Positions 17,389 through 28,470 of a stretch of DNA of 64,000 nucleotides are shown here, piece by piece. Positions within the stretch are counted from its first letter, which is position 1; each line of letters begins with the position of its first letter. This DNA comes from Candidatus Thermofontivivens primus (GTDB taxonomy: Bacteria; Sysuimicrobiota; Sysuimicrobiia; Sysuimicrobiales; Thermofontiviventaceae): contig JAVKJW010000001.1 in assembly GCA_031458695.1 (NCBI GenBank), forward strand, positions 1 through 64,000. The letters are read 5' to 3'. Under the pieces are notes generated by a model. That model saw only the letters and a program-made list of their open reading frames with translations. It was not told where the DNA came from and searched no databases. Position numbers and translations under genes: made by a program.

Positions 17389-18312
17389 TCACTGGGTGAC
17401 TCCGTGTACCAAAATCCCCCAGAGGAGGTCTGCCTCGCTCACGGTGATGCGACGGATGGAGAGAGAATCCATGATCGTCCCACAGAGGAGAGCTCCCGCC
17501 ACGAGGATGTCTGCTCTCTCCGGCTGGATCGCCGGGAGCTTCCGGCGCTCCTCCAGAGGGATGGACGCGAGTTGCCAGAGGAGATGCTCGATCTCCTCCC
17601 GAGAAAGGGAAGAGCCGTGGACTCTCTCTGGGGTATAGGGGATGATCCTATGGTGAAAGGCGCTCAGCGCAGTCAGGGTGCCGCCAGTTCCAATGGCCAA
17701 GCTAGGGTGGAGGGAGGGGATCGCTCGGAAGACCTCTAGGAGATGGTTCCTGGCAGCGGTGATCTCTGGTGGGGACGGGGGATCGCTCGTGAGGAACTCC
17801 TCGGTGAGCCTCACTGCCCCGACAGGAAGGCTCACTACACCCTCCACCTTTTCTCCACCCCAGGCAAGCTCCGTGCTCCCCCCACCGACATCGATGACGA
17901 GCACTGGCCCCGCGGAGGGGGGTTCCTCTCGTGGGGAGAGTCCGGCGGTAGCACCAAGGAATCCCAAGGTGGCCTCCTCCTCCCCTGAGAGCACCCAGAC
18001 CCTGAGCCCACGCTCGCGCAGGGCGGCGAGGACCTCCTCCCGGTTCGCCGCCTCGCGGACGGCTTGTGTGGCCACTACATGGACCTCCACCGCGCCCCGA
18101 GCCCGTGCTTCCTCCACGAAGGAGTCGACGGCCTCAACGGTGCGGATGATCGCGGAGGAGCGAAGAAGCCCGCTTCTGGCAAGGCCTTCGCCCAACCGTG
18201 TGATCACCTGAGCCTGATAGAGGGGTTGGATTCGCCCCGGGAAGACTTCGGCAACGAGAAGCCTGACCGAGTTCGTCCCCACATCAATGGCCGCTAAGCG
18301 CATCACCGCCAT
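17389..18312 (-). CDS. ppx: Ppx/GppA family exopolyphosphatase
   Basis: AAIDVGTNSVRL, GEEEA, DVGGGSTE, GAVRLTE, RADIL. Confidence 0.92.
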   Translation of the reverse strand: MAVMRLAAIDVGTNSVRLLVAEVFPGRIQPLYQAQVITRLGEGLARSGLLRSSAIIRTVEAVDSFVEEARARGAVEVHVVATQAVREAANREEVLAALRERGLRVWVLSGEEEATLGFLGATAGLSPREEPPSAGPVLVIDVGGGSTELAWGGEKVEGVVSLPVGAVRLTEEFLTSDPPSPPEITAARNHLLEVFRAIPSLHPSLAIGTGGTLTALSAFHHRIIPYTPERVHGSSLSREEIEHLLWQLASIPLEERRKLPAIQPERADILVAGALLCGTIMDSLSIRRITVSEADLLWGILVHGVTQ

Positions 18313-18538
18313 GGGAAGACTCCGCGAGGAGGGCGAGGAGGCGAGCTCTTAACCCTGCAGGCGCTTTGTCCTTCTTGCAACATGTCTGGATGATCTCCCG
18401 GAGGCGCCGCTCAAAATCGGCATGCTCCTTACACCGGAGGCAGGCACGCACATGCTCCTCGACCTCCTGCGAGACCTCCACCTCCAGCTCGCGATCGAGC
18501 CATGTCCATAACAGACGGATCACTTGCTCGCAGTCCAT
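18284..18538 (-). CDS. Zinc-binding anti-sigma factor (RsrA/RshA-like)
   Basis: N-terminal Cys, HxxxCxxC (HVRACLRC), AP..LR.R. Confidence 0.85.
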   Translation of the reverse strand: MDCEQVIRLLWTWLDRELEVEVSQEVEEHVRACLRCKEHADFERRLREIIQTCCKKDKAPAGLRARLLALLAESSHGGDALSGH

Positions 18539-18570
18539 GGCTCCCTTCTCGGTATTCCCCCTCAGGGAAA

Positions 18571-19182
18571 TTACTCCCCACTCACCCGGCGGTTCTCCAT
18601 GGCGTACTCCCAGAGCGCCTGGCGGAGTTGCTGGCGCCCGCGATGGAGCCTGGACATCACCGTTCCCAAAGGGATGTCTAGGATCTCTGAGATCTCCTTG
18701 TAAGAAAATCCCTCGATATCGGCAAGGACCACAGCCATCCGGAACGGCGCAGGGAGTTGCGAGAGTGCCTTCCGCACGTGTTCGTCCATGATCCGCTCGA
18801 TGAATGCCTCAGGGTTCCCTCTCTCACTGAACTCCGTGCTTCCATGGACCCTATTGGAAAGGTAGAACTCCCCGATATCCTCCTGATCCACCCTCTCAGG
18901 CTCTCTATGGCTCCGGCGATACCTGTCAATGTAGGCATTCATGAGGATCTTAAAAAGCCAGGCCCGGGCGTTTGTTCCCTCCTGGAACCGGTCGAACGAT
19001 CGCCAGGCCCGGAGGAATGTCTCCTGAACGAGATCCTCGGCATCGCTGCGGTGTCCTGTAAGGCGCAAGGCCGTCCGGTAGAGGGGGTCAAGGAATTCCT
19101 CCACCATGGCTTCATAACGTTCTTGTGCACCTCTGTTCCTTCCCTGGTCCATCTCTGTAAACGATCTCCCTGCACCGTCCAT
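18571..19182 (-). CDS. ECF sigma factor (SigR/SigH-like); start uncertain
   Basis: DAEDLVQET, FQEGTNARAWL, GFSYKEI, GTVMSRLHRGR. Confidence 0.92.
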   Translation of the reverse strand: MDGAGRSFTEMDQGRNRGAQERYEAMVEEFLDPLYRTALRLTGHRSDAEDLVQETFLRAWRSFDRFQEGTNARAWLFKILMNAYIDRYRRSHREPERVDQEDIGEFYLSNRVHGSTEFSERGNPEAFIERIMDEHVRKALSQLPAPFRMAVVLADIEGFSYKEISEILDIPLGTVMSRLHRGRQQLRQALWEYAMENRRVSGE

Positions 19183-19389
19183 TCCTACACCGTCCCTTTG
19201 TCCCACAAAGGGGGTGCACAGGCTTTCAGGGCCACGAGAGGGAGATGCAAGCTTCGCGAAAGCCGCCCTTTGCCGGGCATTTCGAAGGGGAGTGTCTCGC
19301 TTCTTGATACAGACGGATCTCTGCTACTCCCGGAAAAGTCAGCAAGAAAGGGTTTGCTCACTCGCTTGGGATCCCTGGGTGGATCTTCC

Positions 19390-19821
19390 TCAGGCGCGCC
19401 TTGCTGGCTCTCGGGGGCGGTCGGGGAGCAGGTCCGCAAGGGTCATCTGCTTCAGAACCCCTTCAGCAGCCGTGCGGATCGCCTCCCACACCGGGCGGAC
19501 ACCACACCCTGGGGCATAGATACAGGGAACGTCCCCCGCCTCCACACATTCCCATGGAGAGAGGGAGCCCTCCAGGACGACAAAAGCCTCCCGCAGGGTA
19601 ATCTCCTCAGGAGGCCGCGCCAGGACGTGACCGCCGTTTGGCCCGCGCTTGCTCGTCACAAGCCCCGCCCTTCGGAGGGTGACCATCAGCTGGTTGAGGT
19701 AAGGGACGGGAAGACCCTGACGGCGCGCGATCTCGTGGCTCTGCACAGGACCCTGCCCGTAGTGGATGGCCAGATCTAACAAGGCCCTGATTCCGTACTC
19801 TGCTCGTGTCGAGACCCGCAT
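19390..19821 (-). CDS. Rrf2 family regulator (IscR/CymR-like, three Cys)
   Basis: STRAEYGIRAL, SKRGPNGG, C-x6-C-x5-C. Confidence 0.92.
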   Translation of the reverse strand: MRVSTRAEYGIRALLDLAIHYGQGPVQSHEIARRQGLPVPYLNQLMVTLRRAGLVTSKRGPNGGHVLARPPEEITLREAFVVLEGSLSPWECVEAGDVPCIYAPGCGVRPVWEAIRTAAEGVLKQMTLADLLPDRPREPARRA

Positions 19822-19865
19822 GGTTCCCTCACATCCTTCCTTGATCCCGCGGGATCAGGACGCCT

Positions 19866-20273
19866 TCATCCCTCCTGGACCTCCACGTCCTCCTCGGAGA
19901 TCTTCCCATCGAGGATACGGAAGGCCCGAATCACCGGGTTCTGCTGGTCTTGGAGGGAGACGATTACATAGATGGCTTCCGGGTAGAAGGCCTTCTCCAC
20001 GTCGGTCCGAGAGGGATAGGCCTGGGAGTGCGTGTGAGAGTGGTAGATCCCCACCAGCTCCCAGCCCTTCGCCTCTATCTCTTTGAAGAATTTCAGTTGC
20101 TCTGCCGGATCCATGAGATAGGTAAAGGGGCTATGGTCGACATTGGTCCCCCGGTAGACCTCTTCCACGACCCCATCCTTCCCAGCAAGGAGCCCACAGC
20201 ATTCGTTGGGATATTCTTCCCGGGCGTGCCGGATGATTTCCTCCACTTGATTCTTCCGCAATCTGAGCGCCAT
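19866..20273 (-). CDS. mec: M67/JAB metallopeptidase (Mec+-like, CysO-Cys peptidase)
   Basis: PNECCGLL, YHSHT..AYPS.TD JAMM motif; next to cysM. Confidence 0.85.
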   Translation of the reverse strand: MALRLRKNQVEEIIRHAREEYPNECCGLLAGKDGVVEEVYRGTNVDHSPFTYLMDPAEQLKFFKEIEAKGWELVGIYHSHTHSQAYPSRTDVEKAFYPEAIYVIVSLQDQQNPVIRAFRILDGKISEEDVEVQEG

Positions 20274-20322
20274 CTTCCCGCGATACTCACCTGCCCTCAT
20301 TTTACCATAAAGCTAGGCCATC

Positions 20323-21291
20323 TTAGAGCTCTCTCCAAAGGGCCGTGCTCAGATAGCGATCCCCGCCGTCAGGGAAGATCACGACCACGACCCCCTCTTC
20401 GAGGGACCGCGCCACCTCCAGCGCAGCGACCATCGCCGCCCCTGCAGACTGGCCAACAAAGAGCCCCTCCTCCCGGGCAAGGCGCCGCGCCATGGCGTAG
20501 GCGTCCTCGGTGCGCACATGGATCTTCCGATCGTGGACTCGGGGATCATAGATGCCCGGGACAATAGCCGTCTCCATGTGCTTAAGCCCCTCAATCCCAT
20601 GGAGAGGGCTATCTGGCTCCACCGCAATCACCTCAATCGCTGGGTTGAACTCCTTAAGCCGGCGCCCTACTCCCATGAGGGTCCCGCTCGTGCCGATCCC
20701 GGCGACGAAGTGGGTCACGCGACCTCCTGTCTGCTCGAGGATCTCCACGCCAGTGGTGTGGTAGTGGGCCCGCCAGTTCTCCGGGTTGTTGTATTGGTCG
20801 GGCATGAAGTAACGATCGGGGTTCTCCTCATAGATCCGCCTAGCGACCCTGATGGCGCCGTCGGAACCCTCCAGAGGGTCGGAGACAATGATCCGCGCCC
20901 CATAGGCAGCGATAATCTTTCTACGCTCCTCGCTCACGTTCCCGGGGACGACGAGTTCCACCTGGTAACCCTTGATGGCGCCGATCATCGCGTAGGCGAT
21001 CCCAGCGTTCCCCGAGGTAGAGTCCAGGATCACCTTCTCGGGAGTGAGCTGGCCCGACCGTTCGGCCTCCTCAATCATCCGCAGGACTGGGCGGTCCTTC
21101 ACGGATCCACCCGGGTTAAACCACTCGGCCTTGGCTAAGATCTCCACACCTTCCTTGACACCCGAAAGGACACGCTCAATGCGCAGAAGAGGCGTCCCCC
21201 CGATGCAGGCCAGGAGGGATGTCCCTCGCCGCGGCGTCAGCTCCGATGCCTTAGCTCTTGTAGAGGACTCGATCGGTCTCACCATGATCAC
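20323..21291 (-). CDS. cysM: PLP-dependent cysteine synthase, CysM-like (probable O-phosphoserine sulfhydrylase)
   Basis: NPGGSVKDRP, TSGNAG, GIGTSGT, IEGLKHM. Confidence 0.85.
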   Translation of the reverse strand: MIMVRPIESSTRAKASELTPRRGTSLLACIGGTPLLRIERVLSGVKEGVEILAKAEWFNPGGSVKDRPVLRMIEEAERSGQLTPEKVILDSTSGNAGIAYAMIGAIKGYQVELVVPGNVSEERRKIIAAYGARIIVSDPLEGSDGAIRVARRIYEENPDRYFMPDQYNNPENWRAHYHTTGVEILEQTGGRVTHFVAGIGTSGTLMGVGRRLKEFNPAIEVIAVEPDSPLHGIEGLKHMETAIVPGIYDPRVHDRKIHVRTEDAYAMARRLAREEGLFVGQSAGAAMVAALEVARSLEEGVVVVIFPDGGDRYLSTALWREL

Positions 21292-22163
21292 TCGTCGAAA
21301 AGCACCGTCGCCTCAGGATAGAACCGGACTCTATGGTCGCGGAGCCTCTCCCCGATCAGCTTCTGGAGCATGGCGTTTGCTTGATCTAAGGGCCTAGACC
21401 CCTGCAGGAACTCCAAGGGAAGGTTCACCCTCAGGGCTCGCCCCGGGATGATGTGCCGGGTGATCCCCGTAGGGAGCTTTGCCCCGTTCTGGGCGATGGC
21501 CAAGATCTCTTCCTTGGTAAATAAAGGGAAGCTAACCAGGACCTCTGCGCCGCCGTACTCCTGGGCCAGGGCAGCAAGGTCATCCTCCAGGACCCGGTAG
21601 ATGCGGGCCGTGGACTTATATACCGCGACAACCCTTCTCAGGAGCTCCACATCCCGTAACAGATCGGACACCCCTCCAACTGCATAGGCTGTCCCGTCCG
21701 AAAGGGTGACCGCGCAGAGGACTTCTCTCCTCCGCAGGCGGGCCTGGGCTTCCTCCTGTGGGACTCGCTCAATCTCCGTTCCAAGGACCCCGGCAATCCG
21801 CTCGATGAGTTCAACACCTGGCATATCCAAGAGGAGGTGACGCCAGACATCCAAGATGATGCACGGGTCGAAGTAATCCACCACCTGGACCATCTGGTAA
21901 GGGTATCCCAGCTGGGTCAAGGCCATGACCCGGTTCGCACCGTCGAGCACCACGAGGGGGCCGGGGAATTGATCCAGGGGTGCGGCAATCGGGGGGTTCT
22001 TCAGGAATCCATCCTGCCGCAAGCGCTCAGAAAGCCGCTCTACACGCTTTGGGTCGCATTCCTCGTGGAGGAGGACCTCTCTCCCCTCCACGATGGCCAT
22101 CCGTGGGAGCCTCAAGCCCCGCAATGAGGCAGTCGTTGTGGTTGCCAGGAGCTCGCGATCCAT
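21288..22163 (-). CDS. SbnI/SerK-like free L-serine kinase (ParB/Srx fold)
   Basis: LLHEE..PKR, NPPI, VLDGANR, WRH, LPTGITRH.IPGRAL.VNLPL, RFYPE: collinear with S. aureus SbnI as recalled. Confidence 0.75.
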   Translation of the reverse strand: MDRELLATTTTASLRGLRLPRMAIVEGREVLLHEECDPKRVERLSERLRQDGFLKNPPIAAPLDQFPGPLVVLDGANRVMALTQLGYPYQMVQVVDYFDPCIILDVWRHLLLDMPGVELIERIAGVLGTEIERVPQEEAQARLRRREVLCAVTLSDGTAYAVGGVSDLLRDVELLRRVVAVYKSTARIYRVLEDDLAALAQEYGGAEVLVSFPLFTKEEILAIAQNGAKLPTGITRHIIPGRALRVNLPLEFLQGSRPLDQANAMLQKLIGERLRDHRVRFYPEATVLFDE

Positions 22164-22174
22164 GGTCCCTCGCG

Positions 22175-23617
22175 TTACTCCGCGTCCTTCCGCTGACGGC
22201 TCAAGTGGTCGATGAGGTCGATCTTGGTCACAATCCCCACGACCCGCCCCTGTTCCACGACAACGGCGGCGTTGGTAGAGATGAAGAGTTCCGCGACCTG
22301 CTCAATGGGTGTATCCGGGTTCACCACAGGAGGAGCCGGATCTACAATCGGCGCGATAGGATCTTCTGGGTCGTACCCTCCCTCGAGGAGGTGGTTAAGG
22401 AGATCCACCTCGGTGATCATCCCGACAAGCCCGCTGTCCTCCAGGACAGGAAGCTGGGAGATATCGTATTGCTTCATCTTGGCGATGACCACCCCAATGG
22501 AGTCCCCTGGGCTCGCTGTGATAAGCTCCAAACGCTTCCCCCGAAGGATGTCCGCCACAACACCCAGCCCGGATTCCAGGAACCCGTGCTCACGCATCCA
22601 GTCGTCTGAGAAGATCTTGGAGAGGTACCGGGCGCCTCCATCTGGGAAGATGACCACCACGCGCTTCCCCGCCCCATGGTCGGGCAGCGTCCGAAGATAC
22701 TTCAGCGCACCCGCAAGAGCCGCCCCACTGCTTCCTCCAGCGAAGATCCCCTCCTCCCGAACCAGTCGGCGCGTCATGAGAAAGGCCTCACGATCCGTGA
22801 CCTGGACCACCTGGTCCACCACGGAGAAGTCCATGGTCTCTGGGAGGAAATCCTCCCCAATCCCTTCGACCTTATAGGTATGGGCCTCGCCAAGGCGTCC
22901 GGACTTGAAGTATTCGGTGTACACAGAACCAATGGGATCAACGCCAACCACAGTGAGCGAGGAGTTACGCTCCTTGAGGAACCGGCCGGCCCCGGAAATG
23001 GTCCCTCCTGTCCCCATCCCGGCTACGAGGATATCCACTTTTCCCCTCGTCTGTTTCCAGATCTCTGGCCCCGTTGTCTCATAGTGTGCCCGGGGATTCA
23101 TCGGGTTATGGTATTGGCCGGCATAGAACGCGTTGGGCGTCTCCTGGGCAATCCTACGGCTTACGCTGTAGTAGCTCCTCGGGTCCTCCGGTGGGACAGC
23201 GGTCGGGGTGATCACGACTCGTGCACCAAACGCCCGCAGTAGCTGGATCTTCTCCTGGCTCATCTTATCGGGGAGGACGAAGACCGTTTTATACCCCTTC
23301 ACGGCGGCAGCCATAGCCAGCCCCACACCGGTGTTCCCGGATGTTGCCTCGACGATCGTACCCCCAGGGCGGAGGAGCCCACGGCGTTCCGCATCCTCGA
23401 TCATAGCGACGCCAATGCGGTCCTTGACCGAGCCTCCTGGGTTCAGGTACTCCAGCTTCGCGACGACTTCGGCACGCACGCCGCGCACCACCTTGTGCAA
23501 CCGGACAAGAGGAGTGTTCCCAATGACCTCGAGGATGCTATCCGCAATTTCCTCCGCGAGAGGGACCTCCAGCGAGGTCCTTCCTCGCAGTTTCCTGGCA
23601 TCTCGTCCGCTCCCCAT
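22175..23617 (-). CDS. cbs: Cystathionine beta-synthase with C-terminal CBS domains
   Basis: NPGGSVKDRIG, PDKMSQEK, GMGTGGT, YKVEGIGEDF, YLSKIF.D.WM, tandem CBS pair. Confidence 0.9.
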   Translation of the reverse strand: MGSGRDARKLRGRTSLEVPLAEEIADSILEVIGNTPLVRLHKVVRGVRAEVVAKLEYLNPGGSVKDRIGVAMIEDAERRGLLRPGGTIVEATSGNTGVGLAMAAAVKGYKTVFVLPDKMSQEKIQLLRAFGARVVITPTAVPPEDPRSYYSVSRRIAQETPNAFYAGQYHNPMNPRAHYETTGPEIWKQTRGKVDILVAGMGTGGTISGAGRFLKERNSSLTVVGVDPIGSVYTEYFKSGRLGEAHTYKVEGIGEDFLPETMDFSVVDQVVQVTDREAFLMTRRLVREEGIFAGGSSGAALAGALKYLRTLPDHGAGKRVVVIFPDGGARYLSKIFSDDWMREHGFLESGLGVVADILRGKRLELITASPGDSIGVVIAKMKQYDISQLPVLEDSGLVGMITEVDLLNHLLEGGYDPEDPIAPIVDPAPPVVNPDTPIEQVAELFISTNAAVVVEQGRVVGIVTKIDLIDHLSRQRKDAE

Positions 23618-23636
23618 CTCCCGGGTCCTTCCCTTC

Positions 23637-23936
23637 TCACTCCCGACTCCATACGGGAGGTTCCCCTCCCGCCATAGCCGGGATAATGGAGACCTCGTCA
23701 CCGTCCGCCAGGGAGGTGTCCTTGCCCTGGAGTTGACGGATCTCTGTCCCGTTGACGAAGATATTGATGAAGCTCCTCACCTCTCCGCTCTCGTCGCAGA
23801 GCTGGGAGAGGATCCCGGGGAACTTCCTCTCCAGGGATTCCAGGAGCTCCCCCACAGTGGCTGCATCCACGATTACCTTTGCCTCCCCACCCGTGTACCG
23901 GCGGAGAGGAGTTGGGAGATAGACCTGCGCCGGCAT
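23637..23936 (-). CDS. MoaD/ThiS/CysO-like sulfur carrier with C-terminal extension after GG
   Basis: LPTPLR.YTGG, INIFVNG, DGDEVSIIPAMAGG followed by EPPVWSRE-stop. Confidence 0.88.
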   Translation of the reverse strand: MPAQVYLPTPLRRYTGGEAKVIVDAATVGELLESLERKFPGILSQLCDESGEVRSFINIFVNGTEIRQLQGKDTSLADGDEVSIIPAMAGGEPPVWSRE

Positions 23937-23941
23937 CTTTT

Positions 23942-25084
23942 TCACCCCATCAACGCCTGTTCGAGATCTTCGATAAGATCCTCCGGGTGTTCGATGCCCA
24001 CAGAAAGCCGGAGGAGGTCCTCCTCCACCTGCAAGGGGGTCCCTTCCAGGGAAGCGTGGGTCATCGAAGCAGGGTGGTCGATGAGGGACTCCACACCTCC
24101 TAGGCTTTCCGCCAGGAGGATGATCCTTGTCTGAGAGGCCACCCTCCGCGCCGCCTCCTTTCCTCCTTTCACCCTAAACGACACCATCCCCCCGAAGCCG
24201 GACATTTGGCGGCGGGCCACCTCATATCCAGGGTGATCGGGAAGCCCAGGGTAGTACACCCTCTCGACACGGGGGTGAGAGCGGAGGAATGCGGCGACCT
24301 GGGACGCGTTGGCCTGGTGTCTCTCCATGCGTATGGCCAGAGTTTTGACCCCCCGGAGAACAAGCCAGCAGTCAAACGGGCCAGGGACGGCTCCGACGGC
24401 GTTTTGATGGAACTTCAGGGTCTCGTAGAGGTCCACGTTGGATGTGATGACGGCCCCGCCGACGACATCGCTGTGCCCTCCCAGGTACTTGGTCGTGGAG
24501 TGGACCACGAGGTCCGCGCCGAGGAGGAGGGGCTTCTGGAAATAGGGGGTCGCGAAGGTGTTGTCCACGGCCACGAGCGCACCACGCCTGTGAGCAATCT
24601 CTGCAATCGCCTGGATATCCAGGATCTTGAGGTAGGGGTTCGTAGGGGTCTCCACGAGGACAAGCCTCGTTGAGGGGGTGAACGCTTCCTCTAGCTGGTC
24701 AAGGTCCGTCATGTCCACGAAGGAGGTCTCCACCCCATAGCGCCCGAGGACGCGCACGAAGTAGCGATAGGTCCCCCCGTACACGTCGTTGGGGGCAAGG
24801 ACGTGATCCCCGGGTGAGAGGAGGTAACTCACCGCCGTGATGGCAGCCATTCCAGATGAGAAGGCGAGCCCGAATGCACCCTCTTCAAGGGAAGCCAGGC
24901 ATCGCTCAAGCGCCGCCCGCGTGGGGTTTCCTGTCCGTGCGTATTCATATCCCTTGTGGATCCCTGGGGCCTCCTGGGCGTACGTGGAGGTCTGGTAGAT
25001 GGGAACGATCACAGCGCCTGTAGCCTGGTCAGGTTCCTGCCCATGATGGATTGCCCGCGTTTCAAAACGATAAGAGGACGACAT
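23942..25084 (-). CDS. Cystathionine gamma-lyase/gamma-synthase
   Basis: PIYQTSTY, YARTGNPTR, ETPTNP, DNTFATP, STTKYLGGHSD, AESLGGVESL. Confidence 0.92.
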   Translation of the reverse strand: MSSSYRFETRAIHHGQEPDQATGAVIVPIYQTSTYAQEAPGIHKGYEYARTGNPTRAALERCLASLEEGAFGLAFSSGMAAITAVSYLLSPGDHVLAPNDVYGGTYRYFVRVLGRYGVETSFVDMTDLDQLEEAFTPSTRLVLVETPTNPYLKILDIQAIAEIAHRRGALVAVDNTFATPYFQKPLLLGADLVVHSTTKYLGGHSDVVGGAVITSNVDLYETLKFHQNAVGAVPGPFDCWLVLRGVKTLAIRMERHQANASQVAAFLRSHPRVERVYYPGLPDHPGYEVARRQMSGFGGMVSFRVKGGKEAARRVASQTRIILLAESLGGVESLIDHPASMTHASLEGTPLQVEEDLLRLSVGIEHPEDLIEDLEQALMG

Positions 25085-25108
25085 CCCATGCCCCAATTGT
25101 TGAGGAAA

Positions 25109-25160
25109 ATAGTCTAGATTTGCCTAGGGAGATACTATCATGGGGGTTGGGGGGTGTCAA
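25109..25160 (-). promoter_or_regulatory. Promoter of the sulfur operon with downstream imperfect palindrome (candidate Rrf2 operator)
   Basis: TTGACA-N17-TAGTAT with extended TG (25160-25132); CTAG-N6-CTAG in atagtctagatttgcctagggagat (25109-25133). Confidence 0.65.
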
Positions 25161-25203
25161 GTACAGCACGAACTTGGGTTCCAAAGTATCGCTATACGCT
25201 CCC

Positions 25204-25245
25204 TTGCTCTTCCCGCGTCTTTATGCTATATTCCATATATGGAAT
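25204..25245 (+). promoter_or_regulatory. arsR promoter with 16-bp perfect palindromic operator
   Basis: TTGCTC-N17-TATATT; ATTCCATATATGGAAT (25230-25245) overlapping -10 and start codon. Confidence 0.7.
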
Positions 25246-25612
25246 GAAAACCCAGGATTCCCACTCCAGAAAGTTCCTGAAACCTGAAGTCCTAAAACTC
25301 ATAGGCCACCCTGTGCGGATGCAGATCCTCATGGCCCTGGCGAGGGGGGAGGAGTGTGTCTGCCACCTGACGTTCATGCTGGGGATGCGCCAGGCGTACG
25401 TCTCCCAGCAGCTCGCCATTTTGCGTCGTGCAGGTCTCGTGGTGGACCGGAAAGAGGGCTTGAACGTCTATTACCAAATCGCAGATCCGCACATTCGAGA
25501 ACTCCTCCATCTCTTGGAGAAAGCGGTGGAGGTTCCAAACAAGGTTCATCACCATGGGAGAATAGCGGGGTGCCCTTGTCCCAAGTGTCAGATCGCCCTG
25601 GTCGAGGCGTAA
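25244..25612 (+). CDS. arsR: ArsR/SmtB metalloregulator with Cys/His-rich tail
   Basis: HPVRMQIL, ECVCHL, VSQQLAILR, HHH..GCPCPKC. Confidence 0.88.
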   Translation: MKTQDSHSRKFLKPEVLKLIGHPVRMQILMALARGEECVCHLTFMLGMRQAYVSQQLAILRRAGLVVDRKEGLNVYYQIADPHIRELLHLLEKAVEVPNKVHHHGRIAGCPCPKCQIALVEA

Positions 25613-25672
25613 GGGTTTTTCCCTTTTCTTTTGCCTGGCAATATTCCAAAAACTGAATATAAGGAGGGGCCA

Positions 25673-25945
25673 ATGGAGATCCAGATTCTGTGCGCCGAGT
25701 GTGTGTGTTGCATGCAGTTTGAGCTGCAGGTGTATCGTGCCTTACGGGAGCTCGGCCTTAAGGGAAGGGTGTTTAGGGTTGAAGGGGAATCCATTGTGAA
25801 CTACCTGGTGCCTGGTTCCCAGGCACCAGGGCTGATGATCAACGGGGAACTCGTGTGGGCTGGCGGCCCGCCGCCATCTGAGGAGAAGCTGAAATCCTGG
25901 ATTTGGCTGGCCTTCCAGCGGGAGCAACTCCAGAAAGCAGGGTGA
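25673..25945 (+). CDS. Small thioredoxin-like protein (MTH895/Thioredoxin_3 family, atypical CAECVCC)
   Basis: MEIQILCAECVCC, PGLMING, P...L. Confidence 0.7.
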   Translation: MEIQILCAECVCCMQFELQVYRALRELGLKGRVFRVEGESIVNYLVPGSQAPGLMINGELVWAGGPPPSEEKLKSWIWLAFQREQLQKAG

Positions 25946-25977
25946 ACTGCCCCTCGCTGAAGAAAGGAGGAACTCCC

Positions 25978-27036
25978 ATGCAGGTTTCCCAGATCCTGGC
26001 GGCAGGGCTCTTCGCCCTCAAAGACTACATCGCGTCCCACGTCCTCACCTGTCTTGTTCCTGCTTTCCTCCTGGCTGGAGCGATCGTAACGTTCGTCAAC
26101 CGCGAGGCCATCCTCGATCTCCTTGGAGCGAAAGCGAACAAGCTGAAGTCGTTCTCCCTGGCAAGCGGTGCAAGTTTCTTCCTTGCTGCCTGTTCGTGCA
26201 CAGTAATCCCGGTGAGCAGCGGCCTGTACTACGGCGGGGCGGGAATCGGAGCTGCCTTCATCGTCCTGTGGGTAGCCCCGGCATCCAACCTGCTTGCGCT
26301 GATCTACACCGGCAGTATCCTCGGCGGGGCGATGGTTCTGGCGCGCGTGGTCGCCGCAGTGATCCTGGCCTTCGCTGTCGGCTGGGTCATGTCGCTTGCG
26401 TTCCGGCAGGAAGAAGGGGAACGCATCGCGCACGCTTCCCTTGCATCGAACGGACCGACGACACAAGTCATCGCTCCAGTGGACCTCGGTCTTCTGGGCC
26501 TCCTGGTCGTCTCGCTGCTCGCCCCGAATTACCTCGTGCGCTCAGGCCCGTACAGCCAGAAGGTAGTGGTCTGGGCAATCGCCACAGCGGCTGTTGCCGC
26601 GTACGCTGGCTGGACGAAGACGAGAGCGGAAATCCGCCGGTGGCTCGAGGAGACGTGGTGGTTCGTCCGCCTGATCTTTCCCCTGCTGCTCGTGGGTGTC
26701 TATATCGTCGGGGTGATCGGGGCGTTGCTTCCTCGTACATGGATTGAGCAGTACCTCGGGGGTTCTGGGCTGCAGGCTTCGTTCCTGGCCACATTACTCG
26801 GGAGTGTCAGCTACTTCGCCACCATGACCGAGGCACCGTTCGTACATACCTTGATGAAGCTGGGGATGGGTAAGGGCCCGGCCCTCGCCCTCCTCCTCAC
26901 GGGACCTGGGCTCAGCCTACCGAACTGGCTGGCAATTGCCCGGGTCTTTGGGGCGAAGAAAGCTACTGTCTACGTGCTGACCATCGTTGTCCTTGGAACG
27001 CTGGTGGGCTGGTCCTTTGGCAACTTCATCTTCTGA
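25978..27036 (+). CDS. DUF318/ArsP family permease
   Basis: HVLTCLVPAF, ACSCTVIP, YFATMTE, GPALALLLTGPGLSLP. Confidence 0.9.
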   Translation: MQVSQILAAGLFALKDYIASHVLTCLVPAFLLAGAIVTFVNREAILDLLGAKANKLKSFSLASGASFFLAACSCTVIPVSSGLYYGGAGIGAAFIVLWVAPASNLLALIYTGSILGGAMVLARVVAAVILAFAVGWVMSLAFRQEEGERIAHASLASNGPTTQVIAPVDLGLLGLLVVSLLAPNYLVRSGPYSQKVVVWAIATAAVAAYAGWTKTRAEIRRWLEETWWFVRLIFPLLLVGVYIVGVIGALLPRTWIEQYLGGSGLQASFLATLLGSVSYFATMTEAPFVHTLMKLGMGKGPALALLLTGPGLSLPNWLAIARVFGAKKATVYVLTIVVLGTLVGWSFGNFIF

Positions 27037-27053
27037 ATGGGGGTGATCGTGAA

Positions 27054-27338
27054 ATGAAAATCCAGGTCGTGGGACCAGGTTGCCCGAGGTGCCAGGCGAC
27101 GGAGAGGAACGTCCTCGACGCCTGCTATACGCTGCAGCTTCCCGCGGAGGTTGAGCACGTGCACGATCCGAAGGAATTCGCTAAACTGGGGGTCAGGTTC
27201 ACCCCGGCGGTCATCGTGGACGGGAGGATTTTGATCTCAGGGCGGGTCCCGTCTGTGGCAGAGCTGCAGAAGCTCTTCACAGAGCTCCAGAAGGCTTCCG
27301 GGGAGAGTGAACGTGGGGAGGCTCATCCTCGGACCTGA
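27054..27338 (+). CDS. Small thioredoxin-like redox protein (MTH895/TM0996 family)
   Basis: MKIQVVGPGCPRC, TPAVIVDG, GRVPS. Confidence 0.88.
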   Translation: MKIQVVGPGCPRCQATERNVLDACYTLQLPAEVEHVHDPKEFAKLGVRFTPAVIVDGRILISGRVPSVAELQKLFTELQKASGESERGEAHPRT

Positions 27339-28470
27339 AAAAACCATCCGTCTCCCGGAAGGTACCCAGGGAAGCGAGGTCATCCTCGAACCCCTAGAAA
27401 ATGGGTGGAGCGTGTGGTTTGCGCGTCCCGACGTCCGCCGGGTATACATCGAGCCTACCACGCGCTGCAACCTCGACTGCGCGATGTGTGTCCGCAGGGT
27501 CTGGAAGGATCCTGTTGGGGAGATGGGCTGGGAGACATTCCAGAAGGTCCTCGAAGACCTTCGGTCCTTCCCCGACCTTCACAGGGTGACCTTCGGAGGC
27601 TTTGGAGAGCCCCTCGTGCATCCCCGCATCGTGGAGATGGTGGCCCAGGTTCGAGACCTGGGGGTGGGGGTCACGCTCACCACAAATGGTGTCTTGCTGG
27701 ACCGTTCCATGTCCGAGGCGTTGCTGGAGGCCGGCCTGGATACCATCGTCGTCTCTGTCGACCCCATGCATGTTCAGGCCTACGCGCGGGCGGGGCTCAT
27801 GGAAGGGGTGGACCGCGTCCTGACCAACGTACAAGGGCTCCGGGAACTGGCACGGAGGCGCAATCTCATGGTTCCCCGCATCGGATTGGAGTATGTGGTT
27901 ACCCGGAGTAACCTGGAAGAGCTCACCCTGTTGCCTGAGCTGGCAAAAGCACTCGGAGCTTCCTCTGTCTTGGTGACCAACCTCCTCCCCCATACGCAAG
28001 ATCTTGCCAGCGATATCCTGTACGATCGGGATGAGCCACTTCCTCTCCCAGCTGGATGGCCGGTGCCAAGCGGCGATTGGATTGTGTGGGGAATTCCCAA
28101 ACTCCCTCGCCTGAAGTGGGGCGCTCACCGCCGTTGCCGGTTCGTAGAGCAGCGTGCGCTGGTGATCGCGTGGGACGGCGTGGTAAGCCCATGCTACCAC
28201 CTCCTCCATTCCTATCCCTTCTACATCTACGGGAGGCGCAAGGAGGTTACGCGCTATGTGCTCGGCCATGTAGGGGAACGCTCCCTGCTCGAGATCTGGA
28301 CATCTCCGGAGTACGTGCTCTTCCGTGCGAAGGTCCGGGAGTTCCGGTTCCCTTCCTGTGTCGACTGCGGGATGAACTGCACATTTGCCCAGGAGAACGC
28401 CGACTGCTGGGGCAACAACCCTTCCTGCGCCGACTGCCTCTGGGCCCAAGACATGATCCTCTGTCCCTAA
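27307..28470 (+). CDS. Radical SAM/SPASM protein, resembling tungsten-cofactor oxidoreductase maturases
   Basis: CNLDCAMC, GFGEPL, SPCY, C-terminal FPSCVDC..C..DCWGNNPSCADCLWAQD..CP. Confidence 0.8.
   Translation: MNVGRLILGPEKTIRLPEGTQGSEVILEPLENGWSVWFARPDVRRVYIEPTTRCNLDCAMCVRRVWKDPVGEMGWETFQKVLEDLRSFPDLHRVTFGGFGEPLVHPRIVEMVAQVRDLGVGVTLTTNGVLLDRSMSEALLEAGLDTIVVSVDPMHVQAYARAGLMEGVDRVLTNVQGLRELARRRNLMVPRIGLEYVVTRSNLEELTLLPELAKALGASSVLVTNLLPHTQDLASDILYDRDEPLPLPAGWPVPSGDWIVWGIPKLPRLKWGAHRRCRFVEQRALVIAWDGVVSPCYHLLHSYPFYIYGRRKEVTRYVLGHVGERSLLEIWTSPEYVLFRAKVREFRFPSCVDCGMNCTFAQENADCWGNNPSCADCLWAQDMILCP

Follow-up and report, generated by a model that had tools for sequence, protein, structure and literature searches.

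A stretch of 64,000 nucleotides from Candidatus Thermofontivivens primus (phylum Sysuimicrobiota; assembly GCA_031458695.1, contig JAVKJW010000001.1, positions 1 to 64,000), hereafter the window, contained an operon whose gene content suggested that free serine is phosphorylated rather than acetylated on its way to cysteine. The operon occupied 19390-25096 of the minus strand and comprised seven closely packed genes, overlapping or separated by intergenic gaps of at most 44 nt (Table 1), and its central member was predicted to be a serine kinase related to SerK and SbnI. From the compared sequences and predicted structures, we estimate a chance of about three in four that this enzyme supplies O-phospho-L-serine (OPS) to a carrier-dependent CysM followed by a Mec-like peptidase, with a second route through cystathionine beta-synthase (CBS) and a cystathionine gamma-lyase (CGL)-type enzyme.

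In the proposed route, the kinase would convert L-serine and a nucleotide to OPS, and the translationally coupled CysM would turn OPS into an aminoacrylate bound to pyridoxal phosphate (PLP). The thiocarboxylate of a CysO-like carrier, charged by a MoeZ-like E1 enzyme with a rhodanese domain, would then attack the aminoacrylate to give a CysO-Cys adduct, from which a Mec-like JAMM peptidase would free cysteine; the same peptidase would probably also remove an 8-residue tail that masks the Gly-Gly end of the carrier. CBS and the CGL-type enzyme could provide the second route, from homocysteine and serine through cystathionine to cysteine, and an Rrf2 protein would probably be the operon's regulator. 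We infer the catalytic steps, the phosphate donor, the preference of CysM for OPS, its dependence on the carrier and the double role of Mec from homology, fold, residue conservation, gene order, gene fusions, and the presence and absence of genes. An initial annotation of this DNA had proposed the core of this route, which was consistent with fold, residues, synteny, fusions, the absence of the serine acetyltransferase CysE and the presence of an E1; its proposals of a bypass of SerA and SerC and of a diagnostic basic residue in CysM were not supported, and the operon held a carrier-independent route beside the proposed one.

The 291-residue kinase-like protein had no Pfam match at E ≤ 0.01. 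In NCBIfam it matched the SbnI model at 5.5e-19 (residues 24-285 on model positions 10-248 of 254; 68.5 bits against an equivalog cut-off of 350) and the SerK model at 4.4e-12 (45.7 bits against an equivalog cut-off of 380). A search of PDB sequences at E ≤ 1 returned only SbnI (1e-13) and SerK/PF0380 (1.6e-8 to 3.3e-7), seven distinct sequences in all, and a profile built from 28 homologues reached SbnI at 6.8e-29 and SerK at 2.1e-15. As the scores were far under both NCBIfam cut-offs and identity was 19-22%, the protein represented a separate subfamily, equivalog of neither enzyme. Its gene was single-copy in the genome.

The AlphaFold model of the protein was of high confidence (predicted local distance difference test, pLDDT, 90.4; predicted template-modeling score, pTM, 0.86). 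The structural comparison with SbnI and SerK that the initial annotation had proposed was clear in its outcome, as the top nine Foldseek matches in the PDB were all SbnI or SerK (E 1e-17 to 1e-14, target TM 0.73-0.81, 232-271 alignment columns). The next match, a ParB N-domain, was ten orders of magnitude weaker (E 1.8e-4), and ParB, Noc and sulfiredoxin aligned to the N-terminal domain only, over approximately 80-90 columns with a root-mean-square deviation of 2-6 A. The model thus had a two-domain fold, composed of a ParB/sulfiredoxin-like N-domain and a C-domain found only in SerK and SbnI. A chromosome-partition ParB was rejected as an identity for the protein: no helix-turn-helix (HTH) or ParB Pfam hit was obtained, and the fold match to ParB was limited to the N-domain.

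The SbnI-type motifs that had been noted along the full length of this ParB-fold protein were all present (LHE at 32-34, DGxxR at 74-78, WxH at 107-109, PxGxTR..IxGR at 231-242 and RxYxE at 280-284) and invariant in the 28 homologues, and the match was full-length both by sequence and by predicted fold. Glu34 aligned to SbnI Glu20 and to SerK Glu30, the residue mutated in PDB entries titled E30A/E30Q, and Asp74 aligned to SbnI Asp58; both were invariant in 28/28 homologues. The two SbnI residues are reportedly catalytic, and Glu34 and Asp74 were the predicted catalytic residues of the window's protein, which is a true member of the SerK/SbnI superfamily.

The gene directly downstream encoded a CysM-type cysteine synthase, which scored 393.7 bits on TIGR01138 (cut-off 394.2) and 364.7 bits on TIGR01136 (cut-off 344), and matched PALP at 1.3e-72. 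Among PDB sequences it matched E. coli CysM (1.7e-72) and chain 3dki, titled 'O-phosphoserine sulfhydrylase' (6.5e-62). The PLP Schiff-base lysine, K65 in SVKDR, was invariant in 33/33 kinase-linked CysMs. The basic residue of the IEGLK motif, K237 in the substrate loop, was lysine in 32 and arginine in one of these 33 proteins, with glycine at the same position in the paralogous CBS; in mycobacterial CysM, Arg220 binds the phosphate of OPS. A non-cysteine role like that of SbnA was rejected for this CysM, which scored 215 bits on the SbnA model and 394 on the CysM model. No SbnA-grade match was found in an NCBIfam scan of the window's proteins (215-266 bits against a cut-off of 350), and the locus held no SbnB or siderophore gene, in keeping with the initial annotation.

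The carrier had the beta-grasp ThiS fold (Pfam ThiS, 1.4e-17) and exceeded the cut-off of the NCBIfam SAMP1 model (62.5 against 60 bits); its homologues suggest that the gene starts at the fifth codon. The C-terminus read AMAGG followed by the 8-residue tail (23637-23663). The GG pair was invariant in 21/21 sequences, and 27 of 28 kinase-linked carriers had a tail of 1-18 residues after it, of varying length. Given such a tail, the Gly-Gly end must be exposed by a peptidase, which would most simply be Mec. Several carrier tails in Sysuimicrobiota-like loci ended in a Cys-containing motif resembling R-R-C-L-C-R. The Mec-like protein matched Prok-JAB at 1.2e-27, scored 102.7 bits on the desampylase model (cut-off 130) and bore the H-x-H...S-x-x-D motif of JAMM peptidases (HSHTHSQAYPSRTD).

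A model of CysM in complex with CysO residues 1-94, cut at the GG pair, scored 0.62 against 0.00 for the best control; among solved complexes, 116 of 157 attained this mark, and among mismatched pairs, 2 of 215. Contact agreement between runs was at least 68%, and partner pLDDT at least 87. The model supports binding of the predicted carrier by CysM, although a similar CysM-CysO complex from mycobacteria has already been solved, so that the pass may reflect likeness alone. The initial annotation had placed the E1-like MoeZ elsewhere, and the genome encoded a MoeZ-like protein of 392 residues ca. 100 kb from the operon (G000:C1:125024-126202), with a ThiF score of 286.9 bits, a MoeZ-model score of 422.6 bits over positions 14-384 of 392 (cut-off 647), rhodanese models at residues 280-388, and a C-x-x-G-x-R loop. 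The carrier system is complete in this genome.

The absence of the acetylation route was a further line of evidence. In the genome (2.61 Mb, 56 contigs, 96% complete), no open reading frame (ORF) exceeded the CysE cut-off, the one weak match (39 bits) being the hexapeptide part of a 452-residue ORF, and the only CysK/M-type genes were the two of this operon. Across the phylum, the kinase was encoded in 88/94 genomes (53/54 of the high-quality ones), and CysE exceeded its cut-off in only one of the 94 (G011; 89% complete, 3% contamination). The CysE model detected the real enzyme, as it was over cut-off in 8/14 control genomes. The phylum counts included two unpublished genomes (G017 and G025), without which the kinase was present in 86/92, CysE in 1/92 and HAD-type SerB in 0/92. 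The lack of CysE in both genome and phylum suggests that serine phosphorylation replaces serine acetylation, and this wiring seems to stand in for the usual acetyl-serine route across the whole phylum.

The bypass of serine acetyltransferase proposed in the initial annotation thus agreed with the gene content, but the accompanying bypass of SerA and SerC was not required, as the genome encoded a SerA over cut-off (652 bits) with a class-V aminotransferase gene immediately upstream. By analogy with Thermococcus, OPS would probably also be formed from 3-phosphoglycerate by these two enzymes.

The link between the kinase and cysteine genes was conserved in the synteny survey that the initial annotation had suggested. 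The survey covered 80 loci, kept of 498 genome hits, from Chloroflexota (mostly Anaerolineae), metagenome-assembled genomes (MAGs) labelled Armatimonadota, Sysuimicrobiota or ANGP1, Latescibacterota and a few others, and their ORFs were scored against the window's seven operon proteins. Same-strand partners of the kinase were CysM (32 loci), the carrier (28), Mec (28), CBS (26), Rrf2 (22) and the CGL-type enzyme (15); all six were found together in 10 loci, at least one in 43 and none in 37. CysM lay directly downstream of the kinase in 25/80 loci, with the CysM end within 1.6 kb, and an Rrf2 gene followed Mec in 22/80. In the Latescibacterota loci L020 and L025, the kinase homologue was followed by an isochorismatase-family protein and a quinolinate/nicotinate phosphoribosyltransferase-like protein, and the vicinity lacked genes of cysteine or tryptophan synthesis.

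Gene fusions connected the kinase to the same metabolism. Among the 150 best cluster representatives, six were fusions of a 2-hydroxyacid dehydrogenase resembling 3-phosphoglycerate dehydrogenase (PGDH) with the kinase (576-603 residues; P0168, P0234, P0240, P0246, P0254 and P0261), one was a JAMM-kinase fusion, and one joined a ThiS-type carrier to the kinase. The three PGDH-kinase fusions scanned on NCBIfam matched TIGR01327 at 375-387 bits over the first ca. 310 model positions; the PGDH-like domain was short, without the regulatory C-terminus, and tied the first enzyme of the phosphoserine pathway physically to the kinase. Every partner in this set was an enzyme of serine and phosphoserine metabolism or of the carrier route. 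A CysM and a Mec-type JAMM peptidase were joined in one polypeptide at L012:3426-4868, and ORFs of similar length with Mec-like C-termini occurred in L013, L014 and L078, while the one in L018 was cut by the contig end; a separate carrier gene was not detected within loci L012, L013 and L078. In Anaerolineae, an aspartate-semialdehyde dehydrogenase with a C-terminal JAMM/desampylase domain (ca. 500 residues; L030:394-1884 and L043:1944-3452, with ORFs of similar length in L033, L080 and L083) was encoded in the vicinity of CysM, the kinase and a CysO-like carrier, and may point to a connection between carrier proteins and the homocysteine/methionine branch.

In 18 of the 37 loci without cysteine partners, the kinase gene adjoined TrpB2; most often TrpB2 lay immediately upstream of it, after a tryptophanyl-tRNA synthetase gene. 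This Chloroflexota cluster was seen at L059:3282-9032 and in 17 other loci (e.g., L032, L051 and L081). Five TrpB2 neighbors were scanned, and each was over the cut-offs of both NF009057 and TIGR01415; in L069, a SerB gene adjoined the kinase and TrpB2. TrpB2 enzymes reportedly make tryptophan in an OPS-dependent manner (Busch 2014, cited in PMC12790993), and the cluster suggests a dedicated module for salvaging serine and indole as tryptophan. In several of the scanned TrpB2 loci, the cluster was followed by a small PilZ protein and a 570-610-residue protein with Thy1 (ThyX) domains.

The kinase family was large. A word-indexed search retrieved 537 related proteins, mostly from MAGs labelled Armatimonadota or Chloroflexota, and those that were named were called 'hypothetical protein' or 'ParB N-terminal domain-containing protein'. 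With HMMER, 2,037 clusters among 1.84 billion cluster representatives were matched at E ≤ 1e-3, 1,280 at ≤ 1e-10 and 474 at ≤ 1e-30, and with one genome taken per species, 498 of 543 pattern hits encoded a relative. In a quick tree (SH-aLRT support only, midpoint root), the window's kinase fell within a clade of 26 rows, all with cysteine context (SH-aLRT 98), and 16 of the 18 TrpB2-linked kinases fell in one Chloroflexota clade of 17 rows. The odds appear evenly balanced that this large bacterial family (1,280 clusters at 50% identity, E ≤ 1e-10) is the general means of serine activation in several phyla (the window's phylum, Chloroflexota and others), one that would replace serine acetyltransferase phylum-wide and provide OPS to PLP beta-replacement enzymes of at least two kinds, namely CysM with its carrier and, in tryptophan salvage from serine and indole, TrpB2, with a JAMM peptidase both unmasking the carrier and releasing cysteine.

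The operon resembled the mycobacterial mec-cysO-cysM system with MoeZ in its adjoining JAMM peptidase, Gly-Gly ThiS-type carrier and CysM-type enzyme, and in having the rhodanese E1 encoded elsewhere. It differed in the kinase gene between carrier/CBS and cysM, in the inclusion of CBS, CGL and Rrf2 genes, and in the lack of a CysE/CysK route besides; mycobacterial CysO ends at GG, whereas the window's carrier had a C-terminal tail past it. ThiS-type carriers with extra C-terminal residues and a JAMM peptidase nearby are known in HcyS/HcyD of Wolinella and QbsE/QbsD of Pseudomonas, which make homocysteine or a quinoline thioacid. The window's carrier was likewise masked at Gly-Gly with a JAMM gene nearby, and trimming of its tail by Mec would be similar. 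A transsulfuration-type route beside the carrier system is shared with the mycobacterial organism, which has reverse transsulfuration (PMC11361707).

A similar use of phosphorylated serine was shown in the archaeon Thermococcus kodakarensis, in which SerK phosphorylates free serine and an OPS-using CysK makes cysteine from it, without a clear serine acetyltransferase, and the kinase has the same fold and catalytic Glu. An ATP-dependent SerK has reportedly been described as well. The Thermococcus SerK is ADP-dependent, the sulfur donor is sulfide, and serK lies outside the synthase operon, whereas in the window a carrier protein and a shared operon were found. The window's kinase was also only ca. 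19-20% identical to SerK and had a C-terminal extension of ca. 40 residues ending in a conserved R-x-Y-x-E...L-F-D-E. In Makino 2016 (PMC5120207), both OPS routes, from serine and from 3-phosphoglycerate, are described for Thermococcus, Lys188 of its cysteine synthase is placed where Arg297 of the Aeropyrum enzyme binds phosphoserine, and clear-cut SerK homologues are stated as not found in bacteria.

Staphylococcus SbnI was the best match by sequence and fold, into the C-terminal R-x-Y-x-E region, and this ATP-dependent kinase likewise supplies OPS to a neighboring CysK-fold PLP enzyme, SbnA, for staphyloferrin B. In the window, by contrast, an SbnA-grade enzyme, SbnB and siderophore genes were lacking, the product would be cysteine, and identity was 21-22%. 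The TrpB2 arrangement offers a parallel of another kind, a second, reportedly OPS-consuming PLP beta-replacement enzyme beside the same kinase family in 18/80 loci, though it was found in Chloroflexota relatives and not in the window. A bacterial free-serine kinase has also been proposed by comparative genomics for DUF1015, termed 'SerBK', with a remote structural likeness to SbnI (GapMind 2026, PMC13759103). That family is different, however, and is tied there to serA and the replacement of SerB rather than to cysteine synthesis or a sulfur carrier, and the word CysO does not occur in that paper.

The initial annotation had known of no such combination in bacteria, and no paper describing it was found, with limited coverage of subscription journals. 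Specifically, no paper was found that joined CysO, OPS and a serine kinase (coverage was thin for subscription journals and supplements) or TrpB2 and a serine kinase (thin for subscription journals), and literature on the CSP1-3/Sysuimicrobiota phylum, read mostly as listings, abstracts and matched passages, gave no description of this wiring. A 2025 survey of the ParB fold mentioned only SerK, SbnI and sulfiredoxin as enzymes. The novelty lies in a bacterial subfamily of the kinases, its combination with carrier-dependent cysteine synthesis, the lack of CysE across the phylum and the association with TrpB2; all parts have known relatives.

Several observations weighed against a kinase-fed, carrier-dependent route. 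Sequence identity to the solved SbnI and SerK enzymes was only 19-22%, and with scores so far under the cut-offs, the substrate or the phosphate donor could differ. The kinase was not demonstrably required, as OPS may already come from SerA and the aminotransferase. CysM missed the TIGR01138 cut-off by 0.5 bit, and its K237 aligned to R210 of E. coli CysM, an O-acetylserine enzyme. Because that enzyme shares the basic residue, K237 is compatible with OPS use without being diagnostic of it, and of the initial claim about IEGLK, the residue stood and its OPS specificity did not. The absence of CysE was based on draft genomes; 19 of the 80 loci had neither cysteine nor TrpB2 context (many were short, several just 3-5 kb); and the PGDH-kinase fusions fit serine catabolism and OPS supply equally well.

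The last of these points leads to the rival explanation that survived best, in which the kinase would serve mainly in serine assimilation, converting serine to OPS and, by the aminotransferase and SerA running backwards, to 3-phosphohydroxypyruvate and 3-phosphoglycerate, with its place in a cysteine operon being secondary. Assimilation of serine through OPS was proposed for Thermococcales and Desulfurococcales, with serK beside PGDH homologues (Makino 2016, PMC5120207), which, together with the six PGDH-kinase fusions in other genomes and the SerA with its adjacent aminotransferase in this one, speaks for such a role. We nevertheless consider it unlikely as the main function, as the kinase stood among cysteine genes and not beside SerA, here and in all 26 rows of its clade, and was translationally coupled to CysM. 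Serine assimilation and OPS supply for cysteine are in any case compatible, and neither excludes the other.

Operation of the kinase in reverse, forming serine from OPS and a nucleoside di- or monophosphate in place of phosphoserine phosphatase and so feeding CBS, appeared very improbable. HAD-type SerB was indeed absent from the genome and from 94/94 phylum genomes at E ≤ 1e-25, and a dual role has been proposed for the unrelated family DUF1015 (GapMind 2026, PMC13759103). The same source, however, gives an equilibrium constant of ca. 4e-4 against the serine-forming direction. SerB was also without a match in 6 of the 14 control genomes, indicating that other phosphatases are common, and a 208-residue ORF of the histidine-phosphatase family was available in the genome; moreover, the TrpB2 and CysM contexts demand OPS rather than serine. 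That ORF, the genome's only one of its family (G000:C47:2970-3551), is a candidate non-HAD phosphoserine phosphatase.

Similarly slim is the chance that the protein is not a serine kinase at all, being instead a ParB/SbnI-like regulator or a kinase for a different hydroxy-amino acid, such as homoserine or threonine, that feeds the cystathionine gamma-synthase (CGS)-type enzyme. NCBIfam calls SbnI a bifunctional transcriptional regulator and O-phospho-L-serine synthase, the scores were under the equivalog cut-offs, and a CGS-type enzyme was indeed part of the operon. However, neither the catalytic Glu and Asp nor the TRH/GR motifs of the C-terminus varied, the Pfam scan found no DNA-binding domain, HTH or other, the associations with TrpB2, PGDH and SerB all indicated serine or OPS, and characterized members are specific for L-serine (Makino 2016, PMC5120207). 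That CysM is an ordinary enzyme of O-acetylserine and sulfide (or thiosulfate), unrelated to the kinase, was the least credible alternative, for although its best PDB sequence matches were E. coli and Salmonella CysM, which share the basic loop residue, it would have no O-acetylserine source, with CysE absent here and in 93/94 phylum genomes, and the fusions of CysM with JAMM, as well as the conserved adjacency of CysO and Mec, argue against it too.

Metabolic reconstructions of uncultured bacteria repeatedly leave cysteine synthesis as a gap, and if the protein is a serine kinase, a whole phylum lacking CysE gains a route from serine to cysteine that is complete and testable. Free-serine kinases, so far two isolated cases (in hyperthermophilic archaea and in a siderophore cluster of staphylococci), would then form an enzyme class widespread in bacteria, and for the TrpB2 enzymes, themselves puzzling, there would be a supplier dedicated to the substrate reported for them. 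Candidate kinases for phosphoserine production in engineered strains could also come from this family.

The arrangement of the operon is given in Table 1. The JAMM peptidase gene after CysM and the CysO-like carrier in the same operon were found where the initial annotation had placed them, while CBS, the CGS/CGL-type enzyme and the Rrf2 regulator were three further members. The stop codon of the CGS/CGL-type gene overlapped the start of the carrier gene. As annotated, the kinase gene overlapped the start of CysM in a GTGA at 21291-21288 (stop TGA at 21290-21288, GTG at 21291), though an ATG at 21285, 6 nt on, was an equally possible CysM start.

Table 1. Features of the seven-gene operon and its upstream region (window coordinates).
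Feature	Position	Strand	Basis or remark
Promoter-like site (TTGACA, 17 nt, TG-TAGTAT)	25132..25160	-	36 nt upstream of operon's first gene
CGS/CGL-family PLP enzyme, 384 aa	23942..25096	-	Pfam Cys_Met_Meta_PP, NCBIfam NF005871
CysO-like ThiS/MoaD-family sulfur carrier, pro-protein	23637..23945	-	Pfam ThiS, NCBIfam SAMP1
CBS, PLP domain and two CBS domains	22175..23701	-	TIGR01137, PALP, 2x CBS
SbnI/SerK-like putative free L-serine kinase, 291 aa	21288..22163	-	NCBIfam, PDB, Foldseek matches
CysM-type cysteine synthase	20323..21291	-	TIGR01138, TIGR01136, PDB matches
Mec-like JAMM metallopeptidase, 144 aa	19866..20300	-	Prok-JAB
Rrf2-family regulator (CymR/IscR-like), operon's last gene	19390..19821	-	Rrf2

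Both enzymes of the second route exceeded their NCBIfam cut-offs. CBS reached 524.8 bits on TIGR01137 (cut-off 510), with matches to PALP and to two CBS domains; its true start is probably the ATG at 23617 (ORF residue 29), and its relatives were 456-482 residues long. The CGS/CGL-type enzyme matched Cys_Met_Meta_PP at 1.1e-154 and NF005871 at 588 bits (cut-off 513). The regulator matched Rrf2 at 3.4e-39 and scored 96.5 bits on the CymR model (cut-off 195).

The promoter-like site was a consensus match only, with two such sites in the region against 1.8 expected from shuffles. No Rfam match was obtained at E ≤ 0.1 within 18500-26500, indicating no known riboswitch or leader there, and no credible terminator was found inside the operon, the sole terminator-like site lying within the CGL gene and the count being below shuffle expectation. 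For RNA, two metatranscriptome studies were checked, the first with runs X1 and X2 and the second with X3, and the share of sampled words found was 9% in X1, 5% in X2 and next to none in X3. Two contig pieces from X1 were exact, one within Mec (19904-20241) and one spanning the CBS-kinase junction (21993-22241); the three pieces from X2 carried 1-2 differences and lay in CysM, CBS and CGL, and the pieces in X3 were just 90-95% alike and ca. 30 nt long. As the RNA libraries behind these contigs may contain DNA, the pieces are no proof of transcription or co-transcription.

Two gene groups flanked the operon. Directly downstream of the Rrf2 gene and on the same strand, an ECF-type sigma factor, a zf-HC2 anti-sigma factor and a Ppx/GppA phosphatase were encoded at 17389-19206 (minus strand). 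Divergent from the cysteine operon, the region 25154-28470 (plus strand) encoded an ArsR-family regulator, two small Thioredoxin_3 proteins, an ArsP_1-type permease and a radical-SAM/SPASM enzyme.

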